Positions 2,537 to 19,490 of a DNA stretch of 56,679 nt are shown in pieces. A program made the position numbers and the translations under genes. The notes below the pieces were generated by a model, which was not told the origin of the DNA, searched no databases, and saw only the letters and a list, made by a program, of their open reading frames with translations. Positions within the stretch are counted from its first letter, which is position 1. Each line of letters opens with the position of its first letter. The DNA comes from an uncultured Candidatus Woesearchaeota archaeon (GTDB lineage Archaea > Nanobdellota > Nanobdellia > Woesearchaeales > B29-G15): the NCBI GenBank assembly GCA_903915225.1, contig CAIWSB010000030.1, forward strand, positions 1 through 56,679, written 5' to 3'.

Positions 2537-2949
2537 CTTCCCAGCCTCCTCATGAATGGAAGTTTGTCAGGCTTTGGCACAAAGCGTTCCATTACCCTTT
2601 CACGCAAAGCCTCCTTCTTAACTTCTAATGGGGTTTCAGGCTTGTTGCCAGTGGCAATTAACTCCTTGACTTTCTCGTAAACCTGCGCTGCATCCTCTCC
2701 TCTCAGCCCGGCCACCTGCCTCCCGTCATATTTGATCCTCACAACATATTCCTCGTGCATGCCCTGTTCAATGGCTTCTTTCCTTGTTTTCAAAATCTCA
2801 ATGTCTCCTATGTAATACTTACCAAATATTTTCATGGGTTTAATGCTAAATTTCCCTGAGTAAGTTTCATATAAATGGTTCTGGGGCACTTCCCATTTTT
2901 CCACCTTATCAACAATCTCCAGAATTTGCTCCAGAGGCAGCTCGTTCAT
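2533..2949 (-). CDS. Array paralog, single module, type B, unknown function
   Basis: 138 aa. 'MNELPLEQILEIVDKVEKW', 'GEDAAQVYEKV', tail 'KLPFMRRLGR'. ATGA overlaps. Confidence 0.8.
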   Translation of the reverse strand: MNELPLEQILEIVDKVEKWEVPQNHLYETYSGKFSIKPMKIFGKYYIGDIEILKTRKEAIEQGMHEEYVVRIKYDGRQVAGLRGEDAAQVYEKVKELIATGNKPETPLEVKKEALRERVMERFVPKPDKLPFMRRLGR

Positions 2950-3407
2950 TTCCCCAGCCTCCTATACCAAGGCAGCCTCTCAGGTTTAGGGGCAATCATC
3001 TCCTTTAGCTCCTGCACTTTCCTTATGCGCCTCTCCTCACCAATCTGCTTTGCCCTTTCGCGCCTCTCCTCAGCAGCCAGTCTATCCCTCTCCTTCTTCT
3101 CTAATATTTTTATGACCTTCTGGTTTAGCTTTGATTCGGCAATCTCATAAATCCCTTTCGCATCATCGCCACTCAAGTTTGCCACCTGCTCATTCTTGAA
3201 GTAAACATACCCATAATAGCTGGTTGTAACGGAATATTCGGTCTTCCTGACCTCAATTCTGACTTTGCTCAAACCCCCATTGATCCTATAAAACCCATCC
3301 AATTCCGAAGTTTCATTAGAGTAGGTGTTGATTTTCTTCCATGCCTTAACCTGCCTCGCCATCTGAAGTATCTCTTCCAGTGTGAGCTCGGGGCTAACGC
3401 TGTTCAT
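2946..3407 (-). CDS. Array paralog, single module, type A, unknown function
   Basis: 153 aa. 'LTLEEILQMARQVKAW', 'GDDAKGIYEIA', ER/K spacer, tail 'RLPWYRRLGK'. ATG 3407 preferred over 3416 because GAGGT then lies 9 nt upstream. 14-nt overlap with 3394..3762. Confidence 0.75.
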   Translation of the reverse strand: MNSVSPELTLEEILQMARQVKAWKKINTYSNETSELDGFYRINGGLSKVRIEVRKTEYSVTTSYYGYVYFKNEQVANLSGDDAKGIYEIAESKLNQKVIKILEKKERDRLAAEERRERAKQIGEERRIRKVQELKEMIAPKPERLPWYRRLGK

Positions 3408-3762
3408 TTTTCTCATACCTCTTCATGTCCCTCTTTAGAGCCCTGAGCATTCCAGCTGCGCCACGCTCGGCCATCCAATGCCAATATTTCGCAGCTGTTG
3501 TAAGCCTATCCTTAGCTATTTCCAGAACCTTTTTGGCATCATCCCCATAGATGACCTCCTCAAGGTCATTCGAGTACATTACGATTAGCCTGTAAATTTC
3601 CTGGCCGTTGCTGAAGTGCCTTGAAGATACCAGGTTTAGCTTCTCATCTTTCCCCAGCTTGAAAGTCCCGTCATAATACTCCTCAACAACAGCGCTCCTG
3701 CCGCTTTTCCAGCGGGATTTCCCTGCAATATCCACAAGCTCGTCAATTGTGAATGTGCTCAT
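3394..3762 (-). CDS. Array paralog, single module, type C, unknown function
   Basis: 122 aa. 'MSTFTIDELVDIAGKSRW', 'YGDDAKKVLEIA', tail 'MKRYEKNEQR'. ATGA overlap upstream. Confidence 0.8.
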   Translation of the reverse strand: MSTFTIDELVDIAGKSRWKSGRSAVVEEYYDGTFKLGKDEKLNLVSSRHFSNGQEIYRLIVMYSNDLEEVIYGDDAKKVLEIAKDRLTTAAKYWHWMAERGAAGMLRALKRDMKRYEKNEQR

Positions 3763-4175
3763 TTTCCCAGCCTCCGTATGAGTGGCAGCTTTTCTGGCTT
3801 GGGTGCGAGAGCCGCTTTGACCTTGTCACGGACAGCTTTCTTCTGGATATCAGCCGAGTCCTCAAGCTCTATCTCGCCAACTATCTTCTTGACCTTGTCA
3901 TAGACTTTGGCTGCATCCTGGCCCCGGAGGCCAGCAACATCAAACCCATTGTACGTCACAACAACTGTGTAATCATCCATTACACCCTCCTTGACAGCGC
4001 CCTCCTTTGTCTTCAGTATCTGGACCTTCCCATAGTAAGGTTGCCCATTGATATAGTTGAAGCCGTTGTATGAGAAATTCCCAGAGTAACGCTCATGTGT
4101 GGGGTCGAAAACAAACTGCCAACTGTTCGCCTTCTCAACAATCTTCATAATCTCCTCAAGCGGCAGCTCGTTCAT
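3759..4175 (-). CDS. Array paralog, single module, type B, unknown function
   Basis: 138 aa. 'MNELPLEEIMKIVEKANSW', 'GQDAAKVYDKV', tail 'KLPLIRRLGK'. ATGA overlaps. Confidence 0.8.
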   Translation of the reverse strand: MNELPLEEIMKIVEKANSWQFVFDPTHERYSGNFSYNGFNYINGQPYYGKVQILKTKEGAVKEGVMDDYTVVVTYNGFDVAGLRGQDAAKVYDKVKKIVGEIELEDSADIQKKAVRDKVKAALAPKPEKLPLIRRLGK

Positions 4176-4513
4176 CTCCCAATCCTCCGATACCAGGGCA
4201 AAGCCTCGCCTTTCCTGGGTGGCAGCAGCCGGAAGAACCTCTGCTGATGGTAAGCCTCATCAGCAATCTCGTAAAGGCTCTTGGCCTCTTCGCCGCTCGT
4301 GTGTTTAAGGTGCTTGTTCTTTGGCACCAGAGCGAACATATCTCCCAGGTTGCCATGGGAATTATAACGGTAGGAGTCAATGTAATAGCTCATTAAATAG
4401 CAATTGCGGGCGGCACATTTCCCGTAGTAAACCACCATAGTTTCAGTGTCTATTAACCGCTTCCAAACAGGCACTTCCCTGGCAACCTCCAGCATGTCCT
4501 CAACGCCACTCAT
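4172..4513 (-). CDS. Array paralog, single module, short type A, unknown function
   Basis: 113 aa. 'MLEVAREVPVW', 'GEEAKSLYEIA', 'QQRFFRLLPP', tail 'EALPWYRRIGR'. No ER/K spacer. ATGA overlaps. Confidence 0.8.
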   Translation of the reverse strand: MSGVEDMLEVAREVPVWKRLIDTETMVVYYGKCAARNCYLMSYYIDSYRYNSHGNLGDMFALVPKNKHLKHTSGEEAKSLYEIADEAYHQQRFFRLLPPRKGEALPWYRRIGR

Positions 4514-5364
4514 TTCTTATCACCCAGGACATGCCTCTTCAGGGCCTCAATCCTCTCAAGCCGCGCCTTCTCTTCCCGCTCTTTCGCGAGCTCTGCCATC
4601 CGAGGGCCGATATAATCAAACAACGCCTTTGCCTCATCACCAGTCAGGTAGCCCACCTTGTTCCCTTTATGGTTTATCCAGCAGCCATAAAATTCCACTT
4701 CCACCTTTGGCTCTTTGAAATTAATGTTGGTTTTATGCACCTCAATCTTGACTGTTCCAATCTCCTTGAGCTTGAGTTTGCCTGAGAAATAATTGATTTC
4801 CCTATTTGTATTATACTCTACAACTTCACCCCAGCTGTACTTAATTTTATGGTAGGAGGGCCCAACAATACGATTTGGCTTCCAGGCAACATCCTGCGTC
4901 ATTTTCATGACCTCTTCCAACGAGAAAGGCGTTGCCCTTGAATCCCCGCCCAATGCTGCCCTCATCTTCCCCACTTTTACAAGGGCTTCAGTGGTTAAAT
5001 CTGGGCTGCCCCTCACCCACCAATCAGCCATTGCCTGCTTAAGCTCCCCCGACCTCTTCATTTCACGCATTTCCTTCTCCTTGACTTCTTTGTCCATCTT
5101 CACTTTCACATAATCGAAAAGCTGCCTGGCCTCATCCCCCTTCACTTCTGCCATTTTTTCAGGACCATATGAAAGAGATGATATGTAATCAAACTCTCCA
5201 CCCTTATCAATACGTTCGATATCAAAACGCAATAACTTGAAAGACCAAAATCTCGGGTAGGTTTCACCAGTGTATCTCGTGGTGTTTTCAGATATAGTGT
5301 GCTGCCAACTTTCTATCTTATCAGCCATCTTCATCAAATCCTCAAGGCTCAGCGGGCTGCTCAT
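4510..5364 (-). CDS. Array paralog, double module, type D, unknown function
   Basis: 284 aa. Module 1 'LSLEDLMKMADKIESW...GDEARQLFDYV', module 2 'FSLEEVMKMTQDVAW...GDEAKALFDYI', tail 'HVLGDKK'. ATGA overlaps. Confidence 0.8.
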   Translation of the reverse strand: MSSPLSLEDLMKMADKIESWQHTISENTTRYTGETYPRFWSFKLLRFDIERIDKGGEFDYISSLSYGPEKMAEVKGDEARQLFDYVKVKMDKEVKEKEMREMKRSGELKQAMADWWVRGSPDLTTEALVKVGKMRAALGGDSRATPFSLEEVMKMTQDVAWKPNRIVGPSYHKIKYSWGEVVEYNTNREINYFSGKLKLKEIGTVKIEVHKTNINFKEPKVEVEFYGCWINHKGNKVGYLTGDEAKALFDYIGPRMAELAKEREEKARLERIEALKRHVLGDKK

Positions 5365-5729
5365 CTTTCGTACCTCTTCCTGTCTTTCCTTAGCAGCTCC
5401 AGGTCATCTTTGCCGTGTTCTATTTCCTTCCTTGTAAGATATTTTGAAAACCTGGCGGCGCGCTGGCGTGCGATTTCCATTACCTTGGCTGCATCATCGC
5501 CGTAAACCACGTCAACGAGATTCTTGAAATTGCCCACTGTGAGTCGGCAAGTCTCCTGGGCATCCTCTTTGTACCTTGCAACCTGAAGCCAGATAGAATG
5601 CCCCAGTTCAAGCCTAAGCTTCCCCCAATATACCTCTTCAGCCAAGAGGTAATCAGATGCGACAACATCCTGGTACCAGCGTGAGGATTCGGCCATTCTC
5701 ACCATCTCATCAAGGCTGAACCTGCTCAT
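5361..5729 (-). CDS. Array paralog, single module, type C, unknown function
   Basis: 122 aa. 'MSRFSLDEMVRMAESSRW', 'YGDDAAKVMEIA', tail 'RKRYER'. ATGA overlaps. Confidence 0.8.
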   Translation of the reverse strand: MSRFSLDEMVRMAESSRWYQDVVASDYLLAEEVYWGKLRLELGHSIWLQVARYKEDAQETCRLTVGNFKNLVDVVYGDDAAKVMEIARQRAARFSKYLTRKEIEHGKDDLELLRKDRKRYER

Positions 5730-6139
5730 CTCCCCAGCCTCCTCATCAGAGGGAGTTTCTCCGGCCTTGGTGCGATGCGGCGCTTTATCTTTTCCCGTAG
5801 TGGCGTGTTATCACGCTGCTCCGCAGCTGGTTTTTCAGCCAGGAGTCCACTCTTGACTTTTTCATAAATAATTGACGCTTCCCTGCCATTAAATCCCGCA
5901 ATAATAGTATTATTATACTTGACGGTGACGTTATAGCTCTCATGGAGCCCTATCTTTTTTGCAGACTCATTTGTCTTTAGCACATATATCTCGCCGTATG
6001 TTTTGTCACTTCTGAAATCGCCCGAGGCTCTGATATAGAATTTCCCATGGCAGCAATCCTGATATGGCTCTTCAGTGACCTCCCAAGTATCAACCATATC
6101 CACAAACTCCAAAACCTCCTCCAGCGGCAGCTCGTTCAT
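5726..6139 (-). CDS. Array paralog, single module, type B, unknown function
   Basis: 137 aa. 'MNELPLEEVLEFVDMVDTW', 'GREASIIYEKV', tail 'KLPLMRRLGR'. ATGA overlaps. Confidence 0.8.
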   Translation of the reverse strand: MNELPLEEVLEFVDMVDTWEVTEEPYQDCCHGKFYIRASGDFRSDKTYGEIYVLKTNESAKKIGLHESYNVTVKYNNTIIAGFNGREASIIYEKVKSGLLAEKPAAEQRDNTPLREKIKRRIAPRPEKLPLMRRLGR

Positions 6140-6501
6140 TTCCCGTACCTCTCCCTGTGCTTTTTAAGCAGCTCCATGGATTTTCTGCTCTCTTTCGCAA
6201 GCCCTTTCATATACCTTGAGTTACCTCTTGCCTTGCCCCTGGCTATCTCCAAAACCCGGGCTGCATTGTCGCCATAAACAACCTCATAGTATTGATTGTA
6301 CTTGAACACAACGAGCCTGTATGTCTCCTGCCCTTCCTCATGATATTTGGAAATATCCAGCCACACCTTCCCATTATTTTCTAACCTCAATTTGCCCAGG
6401 TAGCCCTCATCTTCAATATAGCCCTCTGATGATACTGCAAGAGGCTCCCATTTCGAGTGCTCTGCCATTCCCACAAGTTCATCAAGGCTAAACGCGCTCA
6501 T
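6136..6501 (-). CDS. Array paralog, single module, type C, unknown function
   Basis: 121 aa. 'MSAFSLDELVGMAEHSKW', 'YGDNAARVLEIA', tail 'HRERYGK'. ATGA overlaps. Confidence 0.8.
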   Translation of the reverse strand: MSAFSLDELVGMAEHSKWEPLAVSSEGYIEDEGYLGKLRLENNGKVWLDISKYHEEGQETYRLVVFKYNQYYEVVYGDNAARVLEIARGKARGNSRYMKGLAKESRKSMELLKKHRERYGK

Positions 6502-6911
6502 TTCCCCAGCCTCCTGTGCAAAGGCAGCGGCTCTGGCTTGGGTGCAATTGCCTGCCTAATCTTGTCTTTCAATTCCTCTGGGAAATCCACATCCGGCTCT
6601 TTCCAATTTCCCAAGCTCTCTCTTATTCTCTCAAAAACCATATCAGCATCTTTGCCTTCAAGCCCGGCAACATAACTGCCGTTGTATCTTATTGTGACCA
6701 AGTCTCTTTGATGGAGCCCTTCCTTTATCCCCTGCTCACTTGTCTTCCGCACATAAATCTTCCCGTAAGTATTCTGCCCGGTGAAAAAATTCCAGGGTTT
6801 AAAATCAAATCTTCCGATATAACCAGTATAGGACGCACCCTTTTGGAAGGTCTCCCAGTGGTCAACCTTATCGACAAGCTCCATTACCTCCTCCAGCGGC
6901 AGCTCGTTCAT
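6498..6911 (-). CDS. Array paralog, single module, type B, unknown function
   Basis: 137 aa. 'MNELPLEEVMELVDKVDHW', 'GKDADMVFERI', tail 'PLPLHRRLGK'. ATGA overlaps. Confidence 0.8.
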   Translation of the reverse strand: MNELPLEEVMELVDKVDHWETFQKGASYTGYIGRFDFKPWNFFTGQNTYGKIYVRKTSEQGIKEGLHQRDLVTIRYNGSYVAGLEGKDADMVFERIRESLGNWKEPDVDFPEELKDKIRQAIAPKPEPLPLHRRLGK

Positions 6912-7339
6912 TTCCCAATCCTCCTCCAGAACGGCAACCTCTCTGGCTTTGGGGCGAGCCTCCCTTTCAACTCCTGTATTACCCTCTGGGTCTCAGTCAG
7001 TTTCTTCTGGCCTTTCTTATTAGCCAGCTCAAGCCTCTCCTGCTGGATTTTCGCATAGCCCGCATCAGCAACCTCAAAGAGCTTCCTTGCATCACTGCCG
7101 CTCAGGTTCGCAATTTCCTTTTCCTTGTAATGTATCTTTACCTCATAGGTTGGGTTTGTTTCTGAATAGGTCATCTTCTTGGCCTCAATCTTGACCTGCT
7201 TGGATGTGCCCCTGGGCTTGAAGTAGCCATCATAGGAAGTTGTGTACATGAGGTACGGACGAACCTTATCCCAGTCCTTCACCTGCCTCGCAATCCCCAC
7301 CATCTCCTCCAGTGTAAGCGCGGTTGTAATGCTGCTCAT
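6908..7339 (-). CDS. Array paralog, single module, type A, unknown function
   Basis: 143 aa. 'LTLEEMVGIARQVKDW', 'GSDARKLFEVA', tail 'RLPFWRRIGK'. Start moved from 7360 to ATG 7339 (ATGA overlap, AGGAGG upstream). Confidence 0.8.
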   Translation of the reverse strand: MSSITTALTLEEMVGIARQVKDWDKVRPYLMYTTSYDGYFKPRGTSKQVKIEAKKMTYSETNPTYEVKIHYKEKEIANLSGSDARKLFEVADAGYAKIQQERLELANKKGQKKLTETQRVIQELKGRLAPKPERLPFWRRIGK

Positions 7340-7713
7340 CTTCCAATCCTCCTGTACCAAGGCAATGCCTCAACATCTGATTCTTCCTTTGGCGGCAGCA
7401 GCTTGAAGAACCTCTGCTGACCATAGGCCTTATCGGCGATTTCATATAGTGATTTGGCATCGTCCCCGCTCGCAGCCTTTACTATGTGCCTTCTCCCGGG
7501 CCCGGAGAACAGGCCGGCAAGGTAATACATCTTTATGGCATTTGTACCCTTCTCTTTGTCTTTTACCCTCGCAATAAAAATATTGGAATTGTGATTGCGG
7601 CTCCTACCATTGTATGTGGTTGACTGGAACAAACTAGACCTTTTCCAGACAGGCACATCCTTGGCAATTTCAAGCATCTCCTCCAGTGAGACCTCGTTTG
7701 AAATGCTGTTCAT
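7336..7713 (-). CDS. Array paralog, single module, short type A, unknown function
   Basis: 125 aa. 'VSLEEMLEIAKDVPVW', 'GDDAKSLYEIA', 'QQRFFKLLPPKEESDVEALPWYRRIGR'. Start moved from 7734 to ATG 7713. Confidence 0.8.
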   Translation of the reverse strand: MNSISNEVSLEEMLEIAKDVPVWKRSSLFQSTTYNGRSRNHNSNIFIARVKDKEKGTNAIKMYYLAGLFSGPGRRHIVKAASGDDAKSLYEIADKAYGQQRFFKLLPPKEESDVEALPWYRRIGR

Positions 7714-8078
7714 TTCCCCATCCTCCTGTACCAAGGCAATGCCTCAACTTCAGATTCTTCCTTTGGCGGTAGCAGCTTGAAGAACCTCTGATTATCATAG
7801 ACCCCTTTGGCAATATCATATATCGATTTCGCATCGTCCCCTCTCGCAGATTTTATTACCTTATATCCCTGTGGTTCGAACACACCGCCAAAATAATCGG
7901 TGGTGGTGACACTCGTGTCTCTTTGCCTGTGCCTGAATTTCGCAATAAGCACAGAAGACCCGTGTTTGCGGCTTCGCCCATCGTAGAAGGTTAATGTCTT
8001 AGACCATCGGTGCCTTTTCCAAACAGGCACATCCTTGGCAATCTCAAGCATCTCCTCCAAAGTCATAGCACTACTCAT
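7710..8078 (-). CDS. Array paralog, single module, short type A, unknown function
   Basis: 122 aa. 'MTLEEMLEIAKDVPVW', 'GDDAKSIYDIA', 'NQRFFKLLPPKEESEVEALPWYRRMGK'. ATGA overlaps. Confidence 0.8.
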   Translation of the reverse strand: MSSAMTLEEMLEIAKDVPVWKRHRWSKTLTFYDGRSRKHGSSVLIAKFRHRQRDTSVTTTDYFGGVFEPQGYKVIKSARGDDAKSIYDIAKGVYDNQRFFKLLPPKEESEVEALPWYRRMGK

Positions 8079-8920
8079 TTTCCCCCATCCCCAAAAACAG
8101 CCCTCTTGAGCCCATCTGCCTTTGCCTGGCGCTGCCTTTCCTGCTTTTCAGCATCCAACTGGTCCTTGCGTCCTTGGACATATTGGTAAACCTTCTCTGC
8201 AGCATCCTCCCTAAGGCTCGCCACCTCTGCCCTCTTGAAGTAAACCCTGGCAGAGAATTTATTAGGAATAACATCGAATCCGTTAGAGTACCCTTCACAG
8301 ATTCCTGCAATTACCCGCACCATGTCCCGTGAGTTTGGTGTCTTGTGTTTCCCACTGTATTCAGTGACTGAATATTCACTCCAGAATCTATCATCATAAT
8401 ATTTTTTAGAAACCCTTTTCCATCCACCCATCTTTTGGGCTATCCCCAGGACCTCCTCAAGCGTAAGCGGGGTCTGCACAGAGGTTTTTTCTGGTTCGCA
8501 TCCCATTGTAGCCCGAAGCTCCTGCACCATCTTCAGGTTGATTGCTTCATGCCTCTTCTTGATGCTCCCTGAAACAACACCCTCAATTGAAGGCTCCTCA
8601 TCCCGAGCAGCCTCCTCAGCCTTTATCCTCTTTTTATTTACCTCCATCTGAATATAATCGAAAGGAAAAGAGGCAATCTCTCCCTTTAATTCAGCAACCT
8701 TCTCCTTGTCATAGGTCACTGAGACTGAATATTCAAACTTCCTTCCGCCATCCCCCTGCAGCTCTCTCCTTTCCACTTCAATATTCGCTTTCTTGGGTGA
8801 GAGGCGTTTGGGCCTGAATGCACCATTGTACCTGAGAATATTCCCCTCCTCTGACTTCCTCCAGCGCTTGACCCTGGCAGCCATTACAGTTATCTCCCCC
8901 ACATGGAAACTGGTGCTCAT
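8075..8920 (-). CDS. Array paralog, double module, type D, unknown function
   Basis: 281 aa. Module 1 'VGEITVMAARVKRW', module 2 'LTLEEVLGIAQKMGGW...EDAAEKVYQYV', tail 'AVFGDGGK'. ATGA overlaps. Confidence 0.8.
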   Translation of the reverse strand: MSTSFHVGEITVMAARVKRWRKSEEGNILRYNGAFRPKRLSPKKANIEVERRELQGDGGRKFEYSVSVTYDKEKVAELKGEIASFPFDYIQMEVNKKRIKAEEAARDEEPSIEGVVSGSIKKRHEAINLKMVQELRATMGCEPEKTSVQTPLTLEEVLGIAQKMGGWKRVSKKYYDDRFWSEYSVTEYSGKHKTPNSRDMVRVIAGICEGYSNGFDVIPNKFSARVYFKRAEVASLREDAAEKVYQYVQGRKDQLDAEKQERQRQAKADGLKRAVFGDGGK

Positions 8921-9762
8921 TTCTTCTCACCCAGGTATTGCCTCTTGAATGCCTCAAGCTGCTTCTGCTCTTCCTGCTCTCTTTTGGCCGCAATTTCCCT
9001 TTCCATTCTTGCCTGGGCCTCATGCCTCCTGCTCTCCTCATTTTCAGCAATGAGGTTGTGGGCCTTCTCAGCTGTGTAGACCATCCCGGTCCATATGTCC
9101 TTCCCCTTGTAAGAGATATTCGCCCTGAATTTCAAATCAAGAACAATGCTGCCATACTTTTTCCAGCTCCTTATTTTCACTTCATCCTTTAGGCCATCAA
9201 GCTGCAGCTTTCCCTCATATGATTCATAGAAAGGCCCTGCCCCATCACCACTAAAAACATCTGCAAAAGACCGGCGCTGTTTCTTCTTCCATTCTGGAAC
9301 CAGTTTAATCAGCCCCTCAACCTCATCCCAAGTTAGTTCGCTCAGTGCAGAGGCCTCCTGGCCCTTACCTAATGCAAACCTTATCTCCTGAACTCTTGTA
9401 AGGACTGGCATCTCCTTCCTTTGTTTCCTCTCCTCAATCGCCCTCTTCCGGGCCTCTTCCCTCTCTTTGTCAGCCCGAATCATGTCCTCGACCATCTTTC
9501 TGTTCTCCTCAGCTTTCTCATATGCAGCATCATACACTACCTTGCCATCCTTCCCTTCATAACTGGCAATAACCTTCTCTCCAAATTTCACATTTACCGC
9601 GTAGGTTTCATTATCCTTTTTCTGTAAGTGGAATTCCATAACCTTTTTCGACTCTGGAACCCCAAGTGCACCCTCCAGGCGGCCATCCTCCCAGTTAGTC
9701 CATTGCTCAATCTTCCGGGCCATCTCAGTAATCTGCTCCAAGGTGAATTCATTGGCGTTCAT
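8917..9762 (-). CDS. Array paralog, double module, type D, unknown function
   Basis: 281 aa. Module 1 'FTLEQITEMARKIEQW', module 2 'LTWDEVEGLIKLVPEW', ER/K-rich linkers, tail 'QYLGEKK'. ATGA overlaps. Confidence 0.8.
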   Translation of the reverse strand: MNANEFTLEQITEMARKIEQWTNWEDGRLEGALGVPESKKVMEFHLQKKDNETYAVNVKFGEKVIASYEGKDGKVVYDAAYEKAEENRKMVEDMIRADKEREEARKRAIEERKQRKEMPVLTRVQEIRFALGKGQEASALSELTWDEVEGLIKLVPEWKKKQRRSFADVFSGDGAGPFYESYEGKLQLDGLKDEVKIRSWKKYGSIVLDLKFRANISYKGKDIWTGMVYTAEKAHNLIAENEESRRHEAQARMEREIAAKREQEEQKQLEAFKRQYLGEKK

Positions 9763-10496
9763 TTTTTCTCACCCAGGATTCCCTTTTTCAGCCGCTCTAT
9801 CCTGGCCTCCTTTTCTTGTTCCTTTTTTAATTCAAAGAGGGTATCATATCTCATCGCCATCTCAGTCAATAGGCTCTGGGCTCGCCCACCCACTATCTCG
9901 AAAACTTTTTTCCCTGCGAACATCACGCTAACCTTCTCCAAATTGCCGCCCAAAATGGCAACTCTTTTATAGCCTGATATTACAACCGGTGAGTCAGCTG
10001 TGTCGAAGCTGCCGCGATATCTTGCAGCCGAACCTATATCCACATGGAAGTTTCGCTTATGCTCCTCGCAATCGCTCATCCCCCTAACCATTTTCAGCAC
10101 ATCATCGTAACTGAGAGGCTGAACAACTGAGCTCTCTGCAGGCGTGTTCCCGAGTGCAGCCCGCATCTCCAGCAGTGCCTTCTCTGCTTTGGAATTCTTG
10201 CATTGTTTCTTTCCGTATGCGATATTGAACGGCTCGGACACATTCTCGCCGTGGTAGTTGGCAATATCCTCATCATTATATGAGACTGTTACGCTGTATG
10301 TGTAACGTTGCCCGGCCTCGTCCTGAACAGCAAACTTGCCCACCTTCAGAACAAGTTTATCCAGCGAATACCATTTGGGCTTGACCTCCCCAACGTAGCT
10401 GGTTAGCTCAGCCCCGTTGTTCACATTATTCTTCCAGTGGGTAACCTTCCGGGCCATCTCGGTAATCTGCTCAAGTGTGAATCTGTTTGAGCTCAT
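9759..10496 (-). CDS. Array paralog, double module, type E, unknown function
   Basis: 245 aa. 'FTLEQITEMARKVTHW', 'KPKWYSLDKLVLKV', second module 'LSYDDVLKMVRGMSDC', tail 'GILGEKK' (GGTGAG = SD of the next gene). ATGA overlaps. Confidence 0.8.
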   Translation of the reverse strand: MSSNRFTLEQITEMARKVTHWKNNVNNGAELTSYVGEVKPKWYSLDKLVLKVGKFAVQDEAGQRYTYSVTVSYNDEDIANYHGENVSEPFNIAYGKKQCKNSKAEKALLEMRAALGNTPAESSVVQPLSYDDVLKMVRGMSDCEEHKRNFHVDIGSAARYRGSFDTADSPVVISGYKRVAILGGNLEKVSVMFAGKKVFEIVGGRAQSLLTEMAMRYDTLFELKKEQEKEARIERLKKGILGEKK

Positions 10497-11239
10497 TTCT
10501 CCTCACCAGCTGTCTTCTTGAAAAGCGCACCCTTCAGCTTCTCCAGCTTTTCTTTCTTTACCCTCTCTTGGCTCTCCCTTTTGAACTCATCACAGCGGGC
10601 CTTTGTGGCACCAATTATCTGGTCAATATCTCCATAATTGCGCTCCTCGAACACCCGCTCCCCATTGAACAGAACCCTTACAATCCAACAGTTCTCAGCG
10701 AAATTGACGCCCTGATAGATAATAACCCTTTGAGGTGAATTCTTCCCTTCGATATTCACACTGCCCTCAAATCTGTAGTCTACATGGCCAAATGTTTGAT
10801 ATGTGTATTTGCATTCTTCTACCCTGTTTATCAGCCCCAAAACCTCCTCCAGGGTGACCGGCTTAACAATTGAGCTCTGGTCAGGCTTGCTGGAAACCAG
10901 TGCCCTCAAATCCTGAACGGCCTTCTGCATTTTCGCTTCCTTATGCTGTTTCTTCTGGTAGGCGATCTGGAAAGGCTCAGATGCATCAAACTCAGCCACC
11001 TTTTCACCGCTGTAGGTAACTGTCACGCTGTATGAGCATATGGGTGGGCTATCGGCATCTGCACAACCGAAAACCGCCCTCCCCACCCTTAGCACCAGCT
11101 TCTCTGGGGAATACCATTTTGGCCTAATCTCACCAACATAGTGCAAAAAATAGGGATCATTATTGGCAGAATCCTTCCAGTGCCCAACCCTTCGTGCCAT
11201 CTCAGTGACCTGCTCCAGCGTGAATTCATTGCCGCTCAT
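10493..11239 (-). CDS. Array paralog, double module, type E, unknown function
   Basis: 248 aa. 'FTLEQVTEMARRVGHW', 'HYVGEIRPKWYS', 'VTLEEVLGLINRVEEC', 'FGHVDYRFEG', tail 'TAGEEK'. ATGA overlaps. Confidence 0.8.
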   Translation of the reverse strand: MSGNEFTLEQVTEMARRVGHWKDSANNDPYFLHYVGEIRPKWYSPEKLVLRVGRAVFGCADADSPPICSYSVTVTYSGEKVAEFDASEPFQIAYQKKQHKEAKMQKAVQDLRALVSSKPDQSSIVKPVTLEEVLGLINRVEECKYTYQTFGHVDYRFEGSVNIEGKNSPQRVIIYQGVNFAENCWIVRVLFNGERVFEERNYGDIDQIIGATKARCDEFKRESQERVKKEKLEKLKGALFKKTAGEEK

Positions 11240-11985
11240 GCCTTCTCGCCCCCGGACTTCTTAAAAAGCGCAGCCTTCATCTTCTCGAGCTTCTCTTTCC
11301 TAAGCTTATCTTGATCCTCTTTTCGGATATTCTGTCTACGAGCGCTTGCTTGACTAAATATCTCAGTCCACGCATCGTAATCACTTGATTCGAAAACCTT
11401 TTCACCATTAAACAGCACTTTTGCAGTGAACTCGTTTTTTATTGGATGGTAAATCTTGAAAAAAAGTACCTTGTAATTTTGTCCCTCGACTTTGATCCTG
11501 CCTTCAAATTTTACGTGCACACGGCCAAATTCTAAGGAGCAATCATAGCATTCATCGAGCTTACCAATCAAGCCCAAAATATCCTCAACAGTAACAGGCT
11601 TAACAACAGAGCTTTCCTCAGGTGTGCTGGACACAAGTGCCCTCAAATCCTGCATGGCCATCTGCATTTTCACTTCCTTCTGCTGCTTCTTCTGGTATGC
11701 AATCTCGAAAGGTTTAGACACATCATCACCGCCATAGGTGGCAACCTCTTCCCCGCCAAAATAGACTATGGCGCTGTACTTGTACTGTGGGGCGCAAGCA
11801 GAGTCCTCATTTGGCATAGTAATTCTGCCAACCCTTATCTCCAATTTATCCCCTGAGTACCATTTTGGCCTTATCTCGCCAACATAGTGCGTGAAGTAAG
11901 GCAAATTCTGGGCAGACTCCCTCCAGTGCCTCACCCTCCCTGCCATCTCAGTGACCTGCTCCAATGTGAAGGTGTTCTCGCTCAT
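11236..11985 (-). CDS. Array paralog, double module, type E, unknown function
   Basis: 249 aa. 'FTLEQVTEMAGRVRHW', 'HYVGEIRPKWYS', 'VTVEDILGLIGKLDEC', tail 'SGGEKA'. ATGA overlaps. Confidence 0.8.
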   Translation of the reverse strand: MSENTFTLEQVTEMAGRVRHWRESAQNLPYFTHYVGEIRPKWYSGDKLEIRVGRITMPNEDSACAPQYKYSAIVYFGGEEVATYGGDDVSKPFEIAYQKKQQKEVKMQMAMQDLRALVSSTPEESSVVKPVTVEDILGLIGKLDECYDCSLEFGRVHVKFEGRIKVEGQNYKVLFFKIYHPIKNEFTAKVLFNGEKVFESSDYDAWTEIFSQASARRQNIRKEDQDKLRKEKLEKMKAALFKKSGGEKA

Positions 11986-12737
11986 TTCTTTTCATCCCCT
12001 GGCTTCTTAAAAAGCACACCCTTCATTTTCTCAAGCTTCTCTTTCAAAGCCCTCTCTTGGTTCTCTTTTTTAACCTCATCAATGCGAGAATATGTGGCAC
12101 CAACTATACGGTCATCTTCTCCCACATTGCGTGTCTCGAATACCTTTTCCCCGTTGAAGAGTACCCTCACAATCCAATTATGTTCTTTGAAATTGCGAAC
12201 TCTGTAAACAAGAACCTTTTGAGGTTCATTCTTCCCTTCAACATTCACTCTGCCCTCAAATCTATAGTCCACATGGCCAAATGTTAGCTCAGTGTCTTTG
12301 CAATCTTCAACTTTTTTGATTAGCCCCAAAACGTCCTCAAGTGTGACTGGCTTTACAACAGAACTTTGCTCAGGTGTGTTAGACAGCACAGTCCTTATAT
12401 CCTGCAGGGCCATCTGCATTTTCATTTCCTTGCGCTGTTTCTTCTGGTAAGCAGTTTGGAAAGGAGCTGAAACATTTTCTCCATTGTATTCAGAAACTAT
12501 TATATCACCATAGGTGACTGTTGCGCTATAATTTCGCTGCGGTTCACACGTGGAATCTTTATTTGGCACAATAATCCTCCCCACAGTTATCTCCAATTTC
12601 TCAGAGGAGTACCATTTCGGCCTTATCTCGCCAACATAGTGCGTAGAGTAGGGCTCATTATTGGGCCAGCCCTTCCAGTGGCTAACCCTCCCGGCCATCT
12701 CAGTAACCTGCTCTAGGGTGAAGGAGTTCTCTCTCAT
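11982..12737 (-). CDS. Array paralog, double module, type E, unknown function
   Basis: 251 aa. 'FTLEQVTEMAGRVSHW', 'HYVGEIRPKWYS', 'VTLEDVLGLIKKVEDC', 'FGHVDYRFEG', tail 'PGDEKK'. ATGA overlaps. Confidence 0.8.
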   Translation of the reverse strand: MRENSFTLEQVTEMAGRVSHWKGWPNNEPYSTHYVGEIRPKWYSSEKLEITVGRIIVPNKDSTCEPQRNYSATVTYGDIIVSEYNGENVSAPFQTAYQKKQRKEMKMQMALQDIRTVLSNTPEQSSVVKPVTLEDVLGLIKKVEDCKDTELTFGHVDYRFEGRVNVEGKNEPQKVLVYRVRNFKEHNWIVRVLFNGEKVFETRNVGEDDRIVGATYSRIDEVKKENQERALKEKLEKMKGVLFKKPGDEKK

Positions 12738-13501
12738 TTCTTCTCACCCACCGTCTTCCTTACAATGGCCTTCTTGATACCCTCAAGCCTTGCTTCTACC
12801 CCTTTATTGTACCTCTCGCTTACAATTCCGCCAATGCGATTATCCATCAACTTTATTAGTTCCTGTGCAGGTTCACCCTCTATCTCGAATACTTTTTCTC
12901 CCTTGAAGAACCCCCTCACAAATAGTAAACTTCCCCCTATGTAATCATATTTCTTGGCGTAGCCGATTATTTTCACAGATGAGTTAGGCTGGTTTGTATT
13001 GAACTTGCCGTGATATTTATCGATGCCACCTTGATGAAGTGTCATGCCCATGCGGAACACCTTGCATTTACTCATTTTATTAATCATGCCAGCAACTTCG
13101 TCATATGTTAGAGGTGGAACAACAGAACTTTCCTGCGGCGTTCCTGTCAGCGTTTCTCTTAATTCCTGCAACGCCGTTTGGATTTTATCCTGCTTGATTT
13201 TTTTATTTCGGTAGGCGACTGCAAAAGGTCCAGAGGCACCTTCCCCTTGGTAGTCTGCGATTTTTTTGTCTGAATAGGTGACTGTTGCGCTGTATGTATA
13301 GCGTGGTAGAGTGGTTGGTTCTGTCACTTCAGCAAGAGCTCGGCCCACTTTTATGACCAATTTATCAAGTGAATACCATTTTGGGCTCATCATCCCAAAG
13401 TATGTTAAAGAGTTGGGCTCATTGCTGGTTGAATCCTTCCATAGCCTAACCTTTTTTGCCATTTCCGTAATCTGCTCCAGCGTGAAGGTGTTCTCGCTCA
13501 T
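12734..13501 (-). CDS. Array paralog, double module, type E, unknown function
   Basis: 255 aa. 'FTLEQITEMAKKVRLW', 'SPKWYSLDKLVIKV', 'LTYDEVAGMINKMSKC', tail 'TVGEKK'. ATGA overlaps. Confidence 0.8.
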   Translation of the reverse strand: MSENTFTLEQITEMAKKVRLWKDSTSNEPNSLTYFGMMSPKWYSLDKLVIKVGRALAEVTEPTTLPRYTYSATVTYSDKKIADYQGEGASGPFAVAYRNKKIKQDKIQTALQELRETLTGTPQESSVVPPLTYDEVAGMINKMSKCKVFRMGMTLHQGGIDKYHGKFNTNQPNSSVKIIGYAKKYDYIGGSLLFVRGFFKGEKVFEIEGEPAQELIKLMDNRIGGIVSERYNKGVEARLEGIKKAIVRKTVGEKK

Positions 13502-14259
13502 TTCTTCTCCACCTCCTTTCTCCTGAGAATGGCGCTCTTCATGCTCTCCAGCTTCTCTCTCTGGGACCTCTCCTTTTTGTCGTTCTTGAGGGCAACTATG
13601 CGTTTATCCGCCGCATCCAATATCTCCTCTTTTGTATCCCCATCCTCTGTTGCGTAAACCACATTCCCTCTGACGTAAATTGTCAAGATTATTTTTCTAT
13701 TAAATTCCTGTTTTGAGGCATATCTCTGGCGAATGGCCAGCTCCAGGTCCGGACTCTGCCCCCCTATCTTGATTCTCCCATTGTACTTAACGAAAGAATA
13801 GCCCGCACTACAAGTGCATTCATCAAATCTCTTAATTACACTCAGCACCTCATCAAGCGTGAGCTGCTTTACAATTGAGCTTTCCTGAGGCGTATCTGAA
13901 ATCAATCCACGCAGTTCCAGCAAGACCTTTTGTTTTTCTGATTCCACCTGCAGGTTACTCTTGTTTGCCACATCGAAAGGCTGGTTCGCATCTTGCCCTT
14001 TATAGTTTGCAATAATCTTGTCAGAATAGGATACAATGGCTGAGTAGGTTGACACAAGCGAATCTCCATTATGGCGGGTGTATCTCGCCACATTAAGCAC
14101 AAGCACGTCCAAGGAATACCATTTGGGCTTGATGTATCCAGTGTAGGCTGTTTTCTGCCCATCTGGGTAGATAACCCCTGAATCCATCCCGTCATTCCAA
14201 GTCCTGACCCTCTTGGCCATCTCTGTGATATCCTCCAGGGTGAATGCGTTCTCGCTCAT
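13498..14259 (-). CDS. Array paralog, double module, type E, unknown function
   Basis: 253 aa. 'FTLEDITEMAKRVRTW', 'KPKWYSLDVLVLNV', 'LTLDEVLSVIKRFDEC', tail 'KEVEKK'. ATGA overlaps. Confidence 0.8.
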   Translation of the reverse strand: MSENAFTLEDITEMAKRVRTWNDGMDSGVIYPDGQKTAYTGYIKPKWYSLDVLVLNVARYTRHNGDSLVSTYSAIVSYSDKIIANYKGQDANQPFDVANKSNLQVESEKQKVLLELRGLISDTPQESSIVKQLTLDEVLSVIKRFDECTCSAGYSFVKYNGRIKIGGQSPDLELAIRQRYASKQEFNRKIILTIYVRGNVVYATEDGDTKEEILDAADKRIVALKNDKKERSQREKLESMKSAILRRKEVEKK

Positions 14260-14975
14260 TTCTTCTCACCCTTGGATCTTATCCTCTCTTTCATCCTCTC
14301 GATGTGTTTTGACATCTCTGTCGTGCCCATCTCCTTCCTAATTTCTTTGAAGCGCTTGTCCATTTGCTCAATAAGACTGTCAGCAGGGAGTAGGTCGAAA
14401 AGTTTTTCGCCCTTATACTTCAAAGTAAAGTAAGTGAAGCCATCAACCGGTAAGTCATTCTTGCCAGCAATAATCTTAGCCCCTGGGATGCTTAATCTGC
14501 CTTTATAGGTGTAAGTTACTGCTTCGCCAGTGCTATGGCAATACCTGCTGCAGTCATCCATCTTTTTGATTATGCTTAGAACCTCCTCCAGCGTCAATGG
14601 TTTAACTATAGAGATATCCTGAAGAGGTTCCCCAAGCGCAGCTCGAACCTCCTGTATCCCCTTGTACTTTTTGGCCTCATGCGGGCGCTTTTTCGCGTAG
14701 GCGATTTCAAAGAGCTTTGATACATCTGGACCTGAGAATTCTGCCACCTTCTCCCCCAAAAAGGATACAGCCACTTTATAGGAGAATTTTTGCTCCGAAC
14801 TTTCTTCGAGGATTTTCGTGACATTTATTTCGAATTCTTTTAGTGACCACAATCTGGGACTGACTTTCCCACTGTAGCCGTAAGATCTGGGCTCGCCAAA
14901 GTAGCTTTCATTCCAGTATCCAACCTTCTGGGCCATCCCCATTATCTGTTCCAGGGTGAATGCGTTCTTGCTCAT
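14256..14975 (-). CDS. Array paralog, double module, type E, unknown function
   Basis: 239 aa. 'FTLEQIMGMAQKVGYW', 'LTLEEVLSIIKKMDDC', tail 'SKGEKK'. ATGA overlaps. Confidence 0.8.
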   Translation of the reverse strand: MSKNAFTLEQIMGMAQKVGYWNESYFGEPRSYGYSGKVSPRLWSLKEFEINVTKILEESSEQKFSYKVAVSFLGEKVAEFSGPDVSKLFEIAYAKKRPHEAKKYKGIQEVRAALGEPLQDISIVKPLTLEEVLSIIKKMDDCSRYCHSTGEAVTYTYKGRLSIPGAKIIAGKNDLPVDGFTYFTLKYKGEKLFDLLPADSLIEQMDKRFKEIRKEMGTTEMSKHIERMKERIRSKGEKK

Positions 14976-15709
14976 TTCTTCTCACCCGCAATCTTCTTCG
15001 AGAAGGCCCTCTTTATCTTCTCAATCCTCTCTTTCTTTTCCCTCTCTTGGATAACCCTATCTAAATCCCTCACGCGGTCATTTAGCTCTTGCAATATTTT
15101 GTGATATTTGAATTCAGTACCCTCTAAAACCGTTTCCCCCTTGTAATCCATTTTTAAGAACCATTTCCCATTGTTTTTATCGTAGTATCTTGAAATGAGA
15201 ATCCGCGAATCCTTCCCATCAAAATTAATTCTCCCGTCATATCTTGATGCAGTTCTATTCCTTTCGCTGTATTTGCACGAATCGAACCTCTTAATCAAGC
15301 CCACAACCTCGTCGCTACTGAGCGGGCTGACAGATGAGCCCTCCTGCGGCGTGTTTGAAATGAGTGTCCTCAATTCCGCCAGAGCCTTTTGTCTACTTAC
15401 TTCCTTAGATTCAATTTTCTTATTGGCAATATCAAATATATCAGAAACCTCATCACCCTGGTAATAGCCAATTGTCTCTTTGCCATATGTGACCCTCGCT
15501 GTGTACTTGTAATTCTGGCCGGACTGGGAATTCGCATCCTGGTAAGTCTGCCTGTCCACCTTAATGGCTAATCTATCAAGTGAATACCAATTTGGCTTAA
15601 TCCTCCCTGTAAAGCTGATATAGCCTAGCTTACTGTCGTCTTCTTCCTTCCAGCCCCTAACCCCCTTGGCCATTTCAGTAATCTGCTCCAGCGTGAAGGC
15701 ATCGCTCAT
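14972..15709 (-). CDS. Array paralog, double module, type E, unknown function
   Basis: 245 aa. 'FTLEQITEMAKGVRGW', 'KPNWYSLDRLAIKV', 'LSSDEVVGLIKRFDSC', tail 'IAGEKK'. ATGA overlaps. Confidence 0.8.
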   Translation of the reverse strand: MSDAFTLEQITEMAKGVRGWKEEDDSKLGYISFTGRIKPNWYSLDRLAIKVDRQTYQDANSQSGQNYKYTARVTYGKETIGYYQGDEVSDIFDIANKKIESKEVSRQKALAELRTLISNTPQEGSSVSPLSSDEVVGLIKRFDSCKYSERNRTASRYDGRINFDGKDSRILISRYYDKNNGKWFLKMDYKGETVLEGTEFKYHKILQELNDRVRDLDRVIQEREKKERIEKIKRAFSKKIAGEKK

Positions 15710-16164
15710 CCGAAAAACCTCCTGTACCAGGGCTGTTTCTTTTCAGCCAATTTGCATAATCTAGAATCCCCTGTGATGGCCTGCTTTATCTCTTCTATGA
15801 CAGCCAGTTTCTCATCCTCTCTCCTTTTTCGCTCAGCAAAAACCGCTTCATTTTCCTTGAGATAGTGGGCCTTCTCAGCAATAGCAAACACTCTTTTCGC
15901 TGCCTTGTAGCTCAACTTGGAGATTTCAGTTTCCCCGCAACTCAAAGAACCACTATAAATATCATTATAAAAATCCCTTTCAAAGAAATAGTTATATTTA
16001 GAAGTCCTATAGTGCGATACCTTCAGAATTACCTCCTTGCCAGACCCAGCGGGTGTGAAGACTCCACTGTATTCAAAACCGTAAGTGTCCTTGTTGTTCT
16101 TGTTCCACAGAGGAACTGCCCGAGCTACTTTCAGAATCTCCTCCAGGCTCAGGGTGTTTTTCAT
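15706..16164 (-). CDS. Array paralog, single module, type F, unknown function
   Basis: 152 aa. 'LSLEEILKVARAVPLW', 'YKAAKRVFAIA', tail 'QPWYRRFFG'. Start moved from 16209 to ATG 16164 (ATGA overlap, AGGAGG 9 nt upstream). Confidence 0.8.
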   Translation of the reverse strand: MKNTLSLEEILKVARAVPLWNKNNKDTYGFEYSGVFTPAGSGKEVILKVSHYRTSKYNYFFERDFYNDIYSGSLSCGETEISKLSYKAAKRVFAIAEKAHYLKENEAVFAERKRREDEKLAVIEEIKQAITGDSRLCKLAEKKQPWYRRFFG

Positions 16165-16610
16165 CCCAAAAACCTCCTGTACCAGTGCCTTTTTGGGTTT
16201 AAGCTGCACAAAGTTGAGTCGCCACTGAGAACCTGCTTCACCTGCTGGATGGTTGCCTGCTCTGCCTCCTGCTTTTTCCTGAACTCAGCATTGGCCGCCT
16301 CAGCTTTCTTCAATAAGATTTTCTTCTCAGCAATCTCATAGACCCTTTTTGCCTGCTTTTCATTTAGCTCAACTGCTCCAGTATCGTCTAATTTCAATGA
16401 ACCCAGATATTGATAGCTAGAATAATCACCAAACATTCCGTAATGTTTAGTTTCAATACCTGTTGCGCTCACATGCATGCTTTTGTCAGAGCCATTTGGC
16501 GTAAACTGGCCAGAGTATGTCTTAGTGTCAAAATGATTGGTATCCTCTTTCCACTCACTAACCCCCTTGGCAATTGTTACAATCTCCTCAAGGCGCAGGT
16601 TGCTGCTCAT
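16161..16610 (-). CDS. Array paralog, single module, type F, unknown function
   Basis: 149 aa. 'LRLEEIVTIAKGVSEW', 'EKQAKRVYEIA', tail 'RHWYRRFLG'. ATGA overlaps. Confidence 0.8.
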   Translation of the reverse strand: MSSNLRLEEIVTIAKGVSEWKEDTNHFDTKTYSGQFTPNGSDKSMHVSATGIETKHYGMFGDYSSYQYLGSLKLDDTGAVELNEKQAKRVYEIAEKKILLKKAEAANAEFRKKQEAEQATIQQVKQVLSGDSTLCSLNPKRHWYRRFLG

Positions 16611-17068
16611 TTCAGAAACCTCCTGTAAAATGGGCGCCTCTCTTTTGCTCCGAGGGTTGAATCCCCGCTTAGGGCCTGCTTCAGCTCCCCGATTGCTTCC
16701 GACTTCTTCTCTGCAACTTTCCTTAACATTTCCGCTTCCTCTCTTTTCTTGCGGTTGGCTTCCTCATCGATTTTATGTTGGATGGCTTTCTCAGCTGCAA
16801 AGTACACTTTTTTTGCCTGCCTTGCTGTTAGCTCTACGATTGTGGTGTCCCCGAATGACAATGTGGCCACATAATCGTTTCTATAGCCTGACCAGGTGGC
16901 TGGGGCCCAAAACCTAGTCACTGATGTGTTCACAACCACGGCCTTATCAGAGCCATTTGGCGTATAGGTTCCTGAGTAAGAGTACCCGCAGTCAATGGGT
17001 TTTTTAGTCCACTCTGAAATCCCATTTGCAATTGTTACAATCTCCTCAAGGCGCAGGTTGCTGCTCAT
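16607..17068 (-). CDS. Array paralog, single module, type F, unknown function
   Basis: 153 aa. 'LRLEEIVTIANGISEW', 'ARQAKKVYFAA', tail 'RPFYRRFLK'. Start moved from 17116 to ATG 17068 (ATGA overlap). Confidence 0.8.
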   Translation of the reverse strand: MSSNLRLEEIVTIANGISEWTKKPIDCGYSYSGTYTPNGSDKAVVVNTSVTRFWAPATWSGYRNDYVATLSFGDTTIVELTARQAKKVYFAAEKAIQHKIDEEANRKKREEAEMLRKVAEKKSEAIGELKQALSGDSTLGAKERRPFYRRFLK

Positions 17069-17939: not shown

Positions 17940-17943
17940 GGTC

Positions 17944-18312: not shown

Positions 18313-18319
18313 TTTTCAA

Positions 18320-19295: not shown

Positions 19296-19397
19296 GGCTG
19301 TTTTCTCTCGAGAAAGCCAAAAAACATGCCCAAACCGAGCCAAAGGAGGAAAAAGGAGTATAGAGGGTTTTTTTTGTCGTCAATATACCTTTTAAAG

Positions 19398-19490
19398 GCA
19401 GCAACAACCCTGGCGGCCGTCGTCGCTAACGCTCCTCCCGGGGCACCCCGTAAGGGACAACCCCCGCCCCGGCGGCGCCACTGTTGCTGC
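19398..19490. ncRNA. GC-rich 93-nt hairpin element, copy A (candidate structured sRNA or MITE-like repeat)
   Basis: Perfect 9-nt terminal inverted repeat GCAGCAACA...TGTTGCTGC. Inner GGCGGCCG/CGGCGGCGCC pairing and a central CCCC-GTAA-GGG hairpin. Second copy at 34678..34769. Intergenic. Strand not determinable. Confidence 0.5.

Follow-up and report, generated by a model that had tools for sequence, protein, structure and literature searches.

We analyzed a 56,679-nucleotide (nt) stretch of DNA, here called the window, from an uncultured Candidatus Woesearchaeota archaeon (the whole of contig CAIWSB010000030.1 of assembly GCA_903915225.1). The sequence derives from a freshwater sediment metagenome and encodes an archaeal Kae1 protein (408.9 bits versus TIGR03722; NCBIfam cutoff, 375). 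Based on a listing of open reading frames (ORFs), its minus strand carries, from position 19194 down to position 44, an array of 37 paralogous genes (g01 to g37) that belong to one family and together comprise 48 modules of about 115 to 155 amino acids (aa). Eleven of these genes, encoding 239 to 284 aa, hold the family module twice, and the other 26, encoding 113 to 164 aa, hold it once. The explanation that best covers the locus as a whole, and that we consider likely, is that an undescribed family expanded within one lineage into a translationally coupled array, the neighboring products of which would assemble with each other, and that a single gene fusion within this array was amplified to the 11 double genes. 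An earlier reading of the sequence (the original prediction) had taken the doubles for eleven fusions of adjacent single genes, with an inter-module linker homologous to the gene junction. That reading is partly supported: the doubles are modules joined in frame, but they most likely do not represent eleven fusions.

Modules and junctions of the array

The 48 modules are homologous and could be aligned end to end. From its start, the module comprises an N-terminal helix (LTLEEILxMAxxVxxW), a Y-x-G motif, beta strands, a DAxxL/Y helix start, and a long charged helix, and it closes with the motif h-x-E-[LIVM]-[KR]-x-x-[LI]. Using an alignment of 47 paralogues, AlphaFold2 modeled the single-module protein encoded at 2946-3416 (all array coordinates are on the minus strand) with a predicted local distance difference test score (pLDDT) of 93.5, placing a helix at residues 13-21, five strands at 26-82, a second helix at 84-141, and then a tail. 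The double encoded by g15 was modeled as the single's fold twice (pLDDT, 85; predicted TM score, 0.67). These alignments and models confirm that there are 11 two-module genes on this strand where they had been placed. In all-versus-all BLASTP comparisons, the N-terminal (N) halves of the doubles matched S-type singles (g33 to g37, at 44-2184, with g37 at 44-523; tails ending in KPExLPWYRRLGK-stop) with E values of 1e-7 to 1e-13, and the C-terminal (C) halves of g17, g18, and g26 matched singles at 1e-5 to 1e-7. S is also the hub type, closest to all groups: hhalign connected every group, the divergent F type excepted, to it at 97.6 to 99.6%. Each half of a double is homologous to a separately encoded protein. 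The array proteins are hydrophilic, with a median isoelectric point of 8.8, a slightly acidic head, and a basic helix-tail, and no signal peptide or membrane segment was found in them. Ratios of nonsynonymous to synonymous substitution rates (dN/dS) of 0.20 to 0.35, obtained for orthologues and recent paralogues, indicate that these are real genes under purifying selection.

Ten of the 11 doubles are contiguous, with DNA repeats of a 734- to 764-nt period running across them, and g26 lies apart; single-module genes are interspersed among the doubles at 5361-8078. The series begins with g09 (245 aa; 14972-15709), the N module of which occupies 15323-15709 and the C module 14975-15322, with the linker at about 15323-15376. 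It continues with g10 (239 aa; 14256-14975; linker, about 14598-14651), g11 (253 aa; 13498-14259; linker, about 13864-13917), g12 (255 aa; 12734-13501; linker, about 13112-13165, ELRETLTGTPQESSVVPP), g13 (251 aa; 11982-12737; linker, about 12348-12401), g14 (249 aa; 11236-11985; linker, about 11596-11649), g15 (248 aa; 10493-11239; linker, about 10859-10912, DLRALVSSKPDQSSIVKP), and g16 (245 aa; 9759-10496; linker, about 10116-10169). Both g17 (8917-9762; linker, about 9337-9390) and g18 (8075-8920; linker, about 8468-8521, ELRATMGCEPEKTSVQTP) encode 281 aa. The separate double, g26 (284 aa; 4510-5364), has a linker at about 4927-4980 (KMRAALGGDSRATP) that is similar to the E-type tail. The linkers of g12, g15, and g18 had been quoted exactly in the original prediction.

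Same-strand overlaps of 4 nt (ATGA) or 1 nt occur at 32 of the 36 internal junctions and at one more at the window edge, where another junction cassette lies at 44-67. All 32 are ATGA stop/start overlaps, 25 of them in a row from g04 to g29. At least 5 nt of AGGAGGTGATC lies 3 to 18 nt upstream of 31 of the 37 starts, and the pattern TGGTAYAGGAGGNTNGGNRRATGA has 7 exact matches in the window versus 0 expected. The Shine-Dalgarno (SD) sequence is encoded by the final residues of the upstream protein, either as the tail PWYRRLGK-stop (TAC AGG AGG CTG GGG AAA TGA) or as the tail GEKK-stop (GGT GAG AAG AAA TGA). In the cassette TGGTATAGGAGGCTGGGGAAATGA, at 2946-2969, for instance, codons for W Y R R L G K are followed by a stop codon, and the next ATG overlaps the TGA. 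Because the SD lies in the last upstream codons, dual coding accounts at least in part for the conservation of the C-terminal peptides. One single-gene junction had been quoted earlier with the correct tail (that of 2946-3416) joined to the head of the same gene (ELTLEEILQMA), the real neighbor beginning MNELPLEQIL, a harmless slip. Experiments have demonstrated termination-reinitiation coupling of translation at 4-nt overlaps, and subunits of heteromeric complexes show an enrichment of gene pairs that overlap in this way (PMC6728339, PMC10666635). Based on their sequence, we infer that the genes of the array are translationally coupled in the same way.

Linkers compared with gene junctions

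To compare tails with linkers, we anchored the alignment at the conserved [KR] of the closing motif. Past this anchor, S- and A-type singles read x-x-[IL]-[AS]-x-K-P-[ED]-x and then LPWYRRLGK-stop, and the N halves of doubles read x-x-[LIV]-[SGT]-x-[TK]-P-[QED]-[EQ], followed by SSVVKP and the next helix. When a 13-residue profile of the single tails was slid along the doubles (about 235 to 270 windows per protein), its top window fell exactly at the linker in 8 of 11, and its second-best place was usually the double's own C terminus. The first half of the linker therefore corresponds to the tail of a single gene and the second half to the N-terminal helix of the module that follows. A stand-alone 16-residue hidden Markov model of the tail was not significant versus shuffled sequences; the strength of the tail-to-linker match is in its position and in the full-length homology. 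The [KT]P[ED][QKE] core, said to be kept in the linkers, is present in its strict form in 3 of 11 (TPEQ, TPEE, and KPDQ) and in a looser form, P-[QEDA]-[EQK], in 9 of 11.

The middle of the junction, with its SD, stop, and start, is a different matter. Read in the downstream frame, junctions give ...[VL]-Q-E-[AVD]-[GFW]-[EGK]-M-x-x-, with the SD (CAG GAG G) encoding Q-E. The g17 linker, Q-E-A-S-A-L-S-E followed by L-T-W-D-E-V, ranked 1 of 274 against junction peptides. The corresponding DNA, CAGGAGGCCTCTGCACTGAGC at 9340-9360, scored 14.0 bits on a position weight matrix (PWM) built from 18 junctions, ranking 1 of 766 positions in the gene and lying at the predicted place. This relic is CAGGAGG-N8-CTG-AGC in frame (CAGGAGG CC TCT GCA CTG AGC, read as Q E A S A L S), that is, an SD, a spacer, and a mutated start in the frame of the downstream gene; a real junction in that frame reads CAGGAGG CT GGG GAG ATG AGC. 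The relic is identical in the g17 orthologue of a related organism (contig L014), but the surrounding stretch is 92 to 97% identical, and the identity is hence uninformative. For the g09 linker (QEGSSVSP), the ranks were 2 of 238 as a peptide and 12 of 658 as DNA. When the seven codons that precede the C module were locally aligned, as DNA, with the cassette, the score was not significant (z, 0.4). The spacing is the same in 10 of the 11 linkers, with two residues and then six ahead of the C-module helix, and it equals the SD-to-helix spacing of junctions with the downstream start M-x-x-[LI][TS]LEE. By this comparison, the tail portion is recognizable in eight doubles, and a significant SD/start relic is present in g17 alone. 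The proposed homology of linker and junction is thus supported for the tail half and the following helix and, for the cassette middle, in g17 alone; the cassette, described earlier as absent from the doubles, has left no DNA trace in ten linkers and is retained as CAGGAGG-N8-CTG-AGC in the eleventh.

We also observed that the helix motif LEE[IV]LG[ML] is coded by GAGGAGG-N8-ATG/CTG, for example at 10835-10855 in g15 and at the equivalent spot in most genes. The modules therefore carry a near-universal in-frame look-alike of an SD plus start a few codons into their helix, which in g15 scored 14.1 bits on the junction PWM, as high as the g17 relic.

If the linkers arose from junctions, a deletion of 3n + 2 nt just upstream of the SD would have joined the codons of the tail to the downstream frame. 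The upstream tail EL[KR]xxLxx[KT]P, the SD (now Gln-Glu), the spacer, and the N-terminal helix of the neighbor would then have become an in-frame linker, in which the former start codon would now be read as Leu or Val. As linker codons, the SD, spacer, and start would have decayed everywhere but in g17.

History of the double genes

The proposal of eleven separate fusions did not survive comparison of the halves, because BLASTP, hhalign, and a neighbor-joining (NJ) tree agree in grouping all 11 N halves with one another and all 11 C halves with one another, as expected from one fusion that was copied. By hhalign, the N8 and N3 sub-groups matched each other at 99.7% and the C8 and C3 sub-groups matched at 98.9%, versus 75 to 95% for N against C; to S-type singles, N halves matched at 99.0 to 99.3% and C halves at 98.3%. 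The NJ tree recovered each of these two sets as one clade. The two were sisters in 1.5% of bootstraps and were never each other's closest relatives. N and C modules thus do fall into two clades, as the original prediction had envisaged for the case that it was wrong, but these clades are not unrelated to the single-module types; both are clearly related to them. N and C halves alike contain a g13/g14/g15 clade (support, 0.86 and 0.985, respectively), and g12 groups with g16 in the C halves (0.86). Congruent N and C groups with a shared g13/g14/g15 sub-clade point to a single fusion that was copied as a unit. We suggest that a single-module gene fused once to its downstream neighbor, giving the ancestor of all eleven doubles, and that tandem and segmental duplication of this two-module gene then produced 11 copies, which diverged. 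One fusion, older than the split of the source organism from its relative and followed by whole-gene duplication, is the simplest history.

The relative in question shares 73 to 80% protein identity with the source organism (synonymous divergence [dS], 0.4 to 0.55), and its orthologues of g09, g11, g17, and g18 are all doubles. They comprise the g09 orthologue P0003 on contig L003 (73% aa identity; dN/dS, 0.35), a g11 orthologue at L003:763-1314 with the same linker as g11 (dN/dS, 0.31), a g17 orthologue at L014:2-748, and the g18 orthologue P0009 (280 aa; 80% identity). On L003 (1,315 nt), the g11 orthologue directly follows that of g09, without g10, and on L014 (1,701 nt), the gene after the g18 orthologue (MSSTMSLDDMLKIVERIKIW...) is not an orthologue of g19. 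Copy number and order therefore vary, and the fused state is constant; among the orthologues compared on L003 and L014, we found no split/fused polymorphism. A third contig, L012, has the end of a gene like the C half of g26 ahead of orthologues of g19 and g20 (dN/dS, 0.27 and 0.28).

More distant relatives are rare. A module profile searched against 1.84 billion representative proteins gave 64 matches at E ≤ 1e-3, about half of which were the window's own proteins or close orthologues. Outside the lineage, the matches comprised about 28 single-module proteins (99 to 157 aa) and 2 doubles (P0042 and P0056), and the 64 also included three long multi-repeat proteins that are probably spurious. 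Two distant relatives with readable contigs, in other archaea, are solitary genes amid housekeeping genes. The usual state of the family is therefore one gene with one module, and the large array is a lineage-specific expansion. A word-indexed protein search likewise found very few relatives. The junction cassette pattern, searched in genome contigs, had its sole match on contig L001 of a bacterial (Lachnospiraceae) metagenome-assembled genome, which we take as chance; in metagenome contigs it found one true relative (L012) and two chance matches (L011 and L013). Scans of metagenome contigs with the doubles, and of viral contigs, returned nothing. As to individual proteins, P0042 (217 aa) and P0056 (251 aa) are two-module family members from another lineage, the N halves of which are mutual best matches (1.6e-6), and the P0042 linker, ...AWKRLGVTDKPTLDELV, resembles a WYRRLG tail read through in the upstream frame. 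P0061 (1,168 aa), from another sample, has 17 or more repeats in tandem, each about 32 aa long (LTLDQVLEIAERMNWNESIVSRAL...) and matching the N-terminal helix motif of the family; it gave sub-threshold matches to the pseudomurein-binding repeat (PMBR) and other helix-motif Pfam families and nothing stronger.

Several observations weigh against the explanation that we favor. One linker of 11 has a significant cassette relic, and the other ten show no likeness to the cassette beyond the Q-E dipeptide, which could just as well correspond to the P-E of the tail in the upstream frame; with Q-E removed, the remaining linkers are indistinguishable from background. The RNA runs checked do not contain the locus, our scans gave no structural or family match that would suggest a function, and the idea that neighboring products are partners draws solely on the coupling pattern, the A-B alternation described below, and analogy. 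In addition, the deep nodes of the tree are weak (bootstraps of 34% for the N clade and 27% for the C clade), and g17, as the sole keeper of the SD-start relic, could be a separate and later fusion than the ancestor of g09 to g16, with g18 and g26 separate again. Such a history of at least two fusions would also fit the g26 (GGDSRATP) and g17 linkers, which are unlike the SSVVKP type, and the BLASTP results, which placed the C halves of g17, g18, and g26 nearer to singles (g36, g05/g30, and g30, respectively) than to those of g09 to g16. We consider it rather unlikely, given that the N3-N8 and C3-C8 matches are above those to any single type, that the NJ tree gives both 11-member clades, that 10 of 11 linkers share their spacing and a Ser at linker position 4, and that all 11 doubles end in a short G[DE]xK-stop tail. 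Internal tandem duplication within one gene is a common route to two-domain proteins and would account for two homologous halves of one fold. It is improbable here, as N and C are each nearer to S-type singles than to each other, the N half retains the full tail of a single gene, and the g17 linker, with SD, spacer, and start-like codon at cassette spacing, has the look of a former junction.

The original prediction had left open whether the split or the fused form came first, and fusion is favored. Under fission, ancestral doubles or a longer repeat protein would have been cut into singles by inserted SD-stop-start cassettes. The array does read as one repeat protein in pieces, and its A-B pairs recur as two-gene units that resemble split doubles. 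We nonetheless regard fission as very improbable: relatives outside the lineage are 28 singles versus 2 doubles, with both of those on readable contigs solitary; the A and B types each have their closest match in S singles, not in N or C halves; and the doubles, as the most clustered and least divergent group, point to a recent expansion. A single-module outgroup, together with groups that are all closest to S singles, argues that the pieces came first and fusion later. Finally, the doubles could be assembly chimeras or frameshift errors at junctions, a concern at any repetitive locus, but their linkers are unlike junctions in sequence and lack in-frame stops, and dN/dS is about 0.3. Short contigs from four independent sequencing runs matched the linker regions with no differences, including contigs of run X1 that cover 12592-13157 (for g12) and 10494-11113 (for g15) with zero differences. 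Because these contigs match and orthologous doubles exist in other assemblies, we exclude an artifact for practical purposes. The original prediction had correctly recognized that this locus contains both split and fused repeats.

Locus, possible role, and known systems

The array is headed by three divergent F-type singles, g01 to g03 (17944-19194), which have the weakest link to the family and account for 2 of the 4 non-ATGA junctions. The first of them, g01 (18700-19194), was given its start at the ATG at 19194, which is preceded by GGTGA. Five E-type singles follow, g04 to g08 (15706-17939; bootstrap, 0.975), with tails reading ...GDST...PFYRRFLG-stop. Below the contiguous doubles lie two D-type singles (g19 and g20) and one of S type (g21) at 6908-8078 and the A-B pairs g22-g23 and g24-g25 at 5361-6911; further A-B pairs lie at 3394-4175 and 2177-2949. 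The A type begins MNELPLEE... and ends APKPEKLPLxRRLGK-stop, the B type begins MSxFSLDEL... and ends ...RYGK-stop, and each has a bootstrap of 1.0. In all 4 pairs (within 2177-4175 and 5361-6911), the A type invariably comes before the B type. The candidate identification of A as a split N half and of B as a split C half was rejected, since by hhalign both are closest to S singles. The segment order of double, D type, ..., A, B is repeated in g18 to g23 and g26 to g29, indicating multi-gene segmental duplication. One contig of run X1 links 17899 back to 17029 (going back 871, with 22 shared letters), which suggests that the E-type genes of the population include a copy-number variant or a recombinant.

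The array extends beyond the low end of the window. A longer contig with the same proteins adds five genes (128, 150, 146, 130, and 251 aa) followed by LemA/GIDE genes on the opposite strand, bringing the total to at least 42 genes and at least 53 modules. Besides LemA/GIDE, the neighbors are an Na/Ca exchanger and, from a reading of its sequence alone, a probable copper-binding lipoprotein; none of the neighbors read is a toxin, Rhs, secretion, or defense gene. Rfam and tRNA scans gave no match. Just upstream of the array, at 19385-19500 (minus strand), is a GC-rich element of about 95 nt that forms a long hairpin (−54 kcal/mol; z, −1.9) and has no Rfam match. Its depth in the source runs is 13 to 33, versus 2 to 5 for the array, and it is considered multi-copy because contigs exit on both sides into unrelated sequence. 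On the plus strand, positions 1-18000 contain many long ORFs antisense to the array (for example, 6516-7058, 180 aa) that have no support as genes and go along with a strong bias toward purines on the coding strand (GC skew, about −0.25). A cluster of eight same-strand genes at 22726-33435 (minus strand) lies apart from the array, with the Na/Ca exchanger among the genes in between. Two of its genes encode AAA+ ATPases (590 and 766 aa) and one a weak VWA-like protein; the remaining five had no Pfam match above threshold, and the cluster may be an uncharacterized system.

Scans of the array proteins and distant relatives against Pfam, NCBIfam, PADLOC, and PHROG gave nothing above threshold, with no match at all in PADLOC and only weak PHROG matches of unknown function (E of 9e-4 or worse). 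Foldseek searches of PDB and BFVD with the single and double models returned nothing at E ≤ 0.001; the best matches were to PURA repeats (I-II) for the double (E, 0.019) and at an E of 0.15 for the single, with TM-scores of 0.14 to 0.22. The best match of the profile to PDB sequences was SRP14 (E, 0.28).

With modest confidence, and partly by analogy, we propose that the genes supply equimolar, distinct subunits that pair or chain with their neighbors co-translationally and that the doubles are neighbor pairs fixed covalently. Ribosomes would terminate and reinitiate from gene to gene, yielding roughly equimolar products, and neighboring products would probably assemble with each other while being made. 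We read the array in this way because of the ATGA coupling, the SDs at its junctions, its two-gene units, the acidic heads and basic helix-tails, and the long charged helices. A more specific version, which is speculative and on balance doubtful, makes the products of the 42 or more coupled genes, equal in amount and in a fixed order, the distinct subunits of a single large assembly, hetero-oligomeric or filamentous, of unseen fold; this would be a repeat protein in pieces, with the basic helix-tail of each product docking on the acidic head of the next and the doubles being joined neighbor pairs. The main functional alternative is a diversified binding or immunity-like array. Against immunity, there is no adjoining toxin, secretion, or defense gene and no match to a known immunity or defense family.

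Fusion of neighboring genes in operons and ATGA translational coupling are both well known. Here, the two probably occur together at an unusual scale, within one family and in one place. Dozens of chained paralogues have their ribosome-binding sites locked into the conserved peptides at their C termini; split genes lie next to fused ones, and one fused gene bears a fossil SD and start codon. The family has no counterpart in Pfam, NCBIfam, PDB, or BFVD, and 1.84 billion proteins include only about 64 representatives of it. The locus is a natural system in which to ask how coupled neighbors become protein domains, how sequence is constrained by having to encode both a peptide tail and an SD, and whether the role of very long coupled arrays is stoichiometric assembly.

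Among known families, the pseudomurein-binding repeat PMBR (Pfam PF09373) resembles the N-terminal helix LTLEEILxMAxxVxxW, which gives sub-threshold matches to it, but the best of these (21.7 bits versus a gathering threshold of 24.9) covers about 27 residues, and the array proteins have no signal peptide. In the PUR-alpha/Whirly repeats and the SRP9/14 fold, two small alpha-beta units of the same chain or of different chains make up one domain. Like these, the module is a small sheet-plus-helix unit that occurs as a single-unit protein or a two-unit chain; its number of strands and its N-terminal helix differ from theirs, and the scores are not significant. The likeness serves solely as an analogy for a possible equivalence of single and double forms. 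Tandem immunity-gene arrays adjoin polymorphic toxin loci and, like the present array, consist of many divergent small same-strand paralogues without enzymatic motifs. Strict ATGA coupling and long charged helices are atypical of such arrays, and we found neither an adjacent toxin or delivery gene nor a Pfam domain in the array proteins. The translational coupling studied by Huber et al. in 2019 and 2023 (PMC6728339; PMC10666635) also involves same-strand ATGA overlaps with the SD inside the upstream ORF. In contrast to those gene pairs, the overlaps of the array join paralogues of one family, 25 of them consecutively, and the SD is built into a conserved peptide at the C terminus (WYRRLGK or GEKK), coupling here being predicted from sequence. 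The doubles are further comparable to the Rosetta-stone fusions of his and trp operons (PMC10138114, PMC2395257), in which co-transcribed neighbors become one ORF and split and fused forms coexist. Unlike in those cases, the partners in the array are mutual paralogues, the fused gene has been amplified 11-fold in place, and one linker keeps the former SD and start codon in frame.

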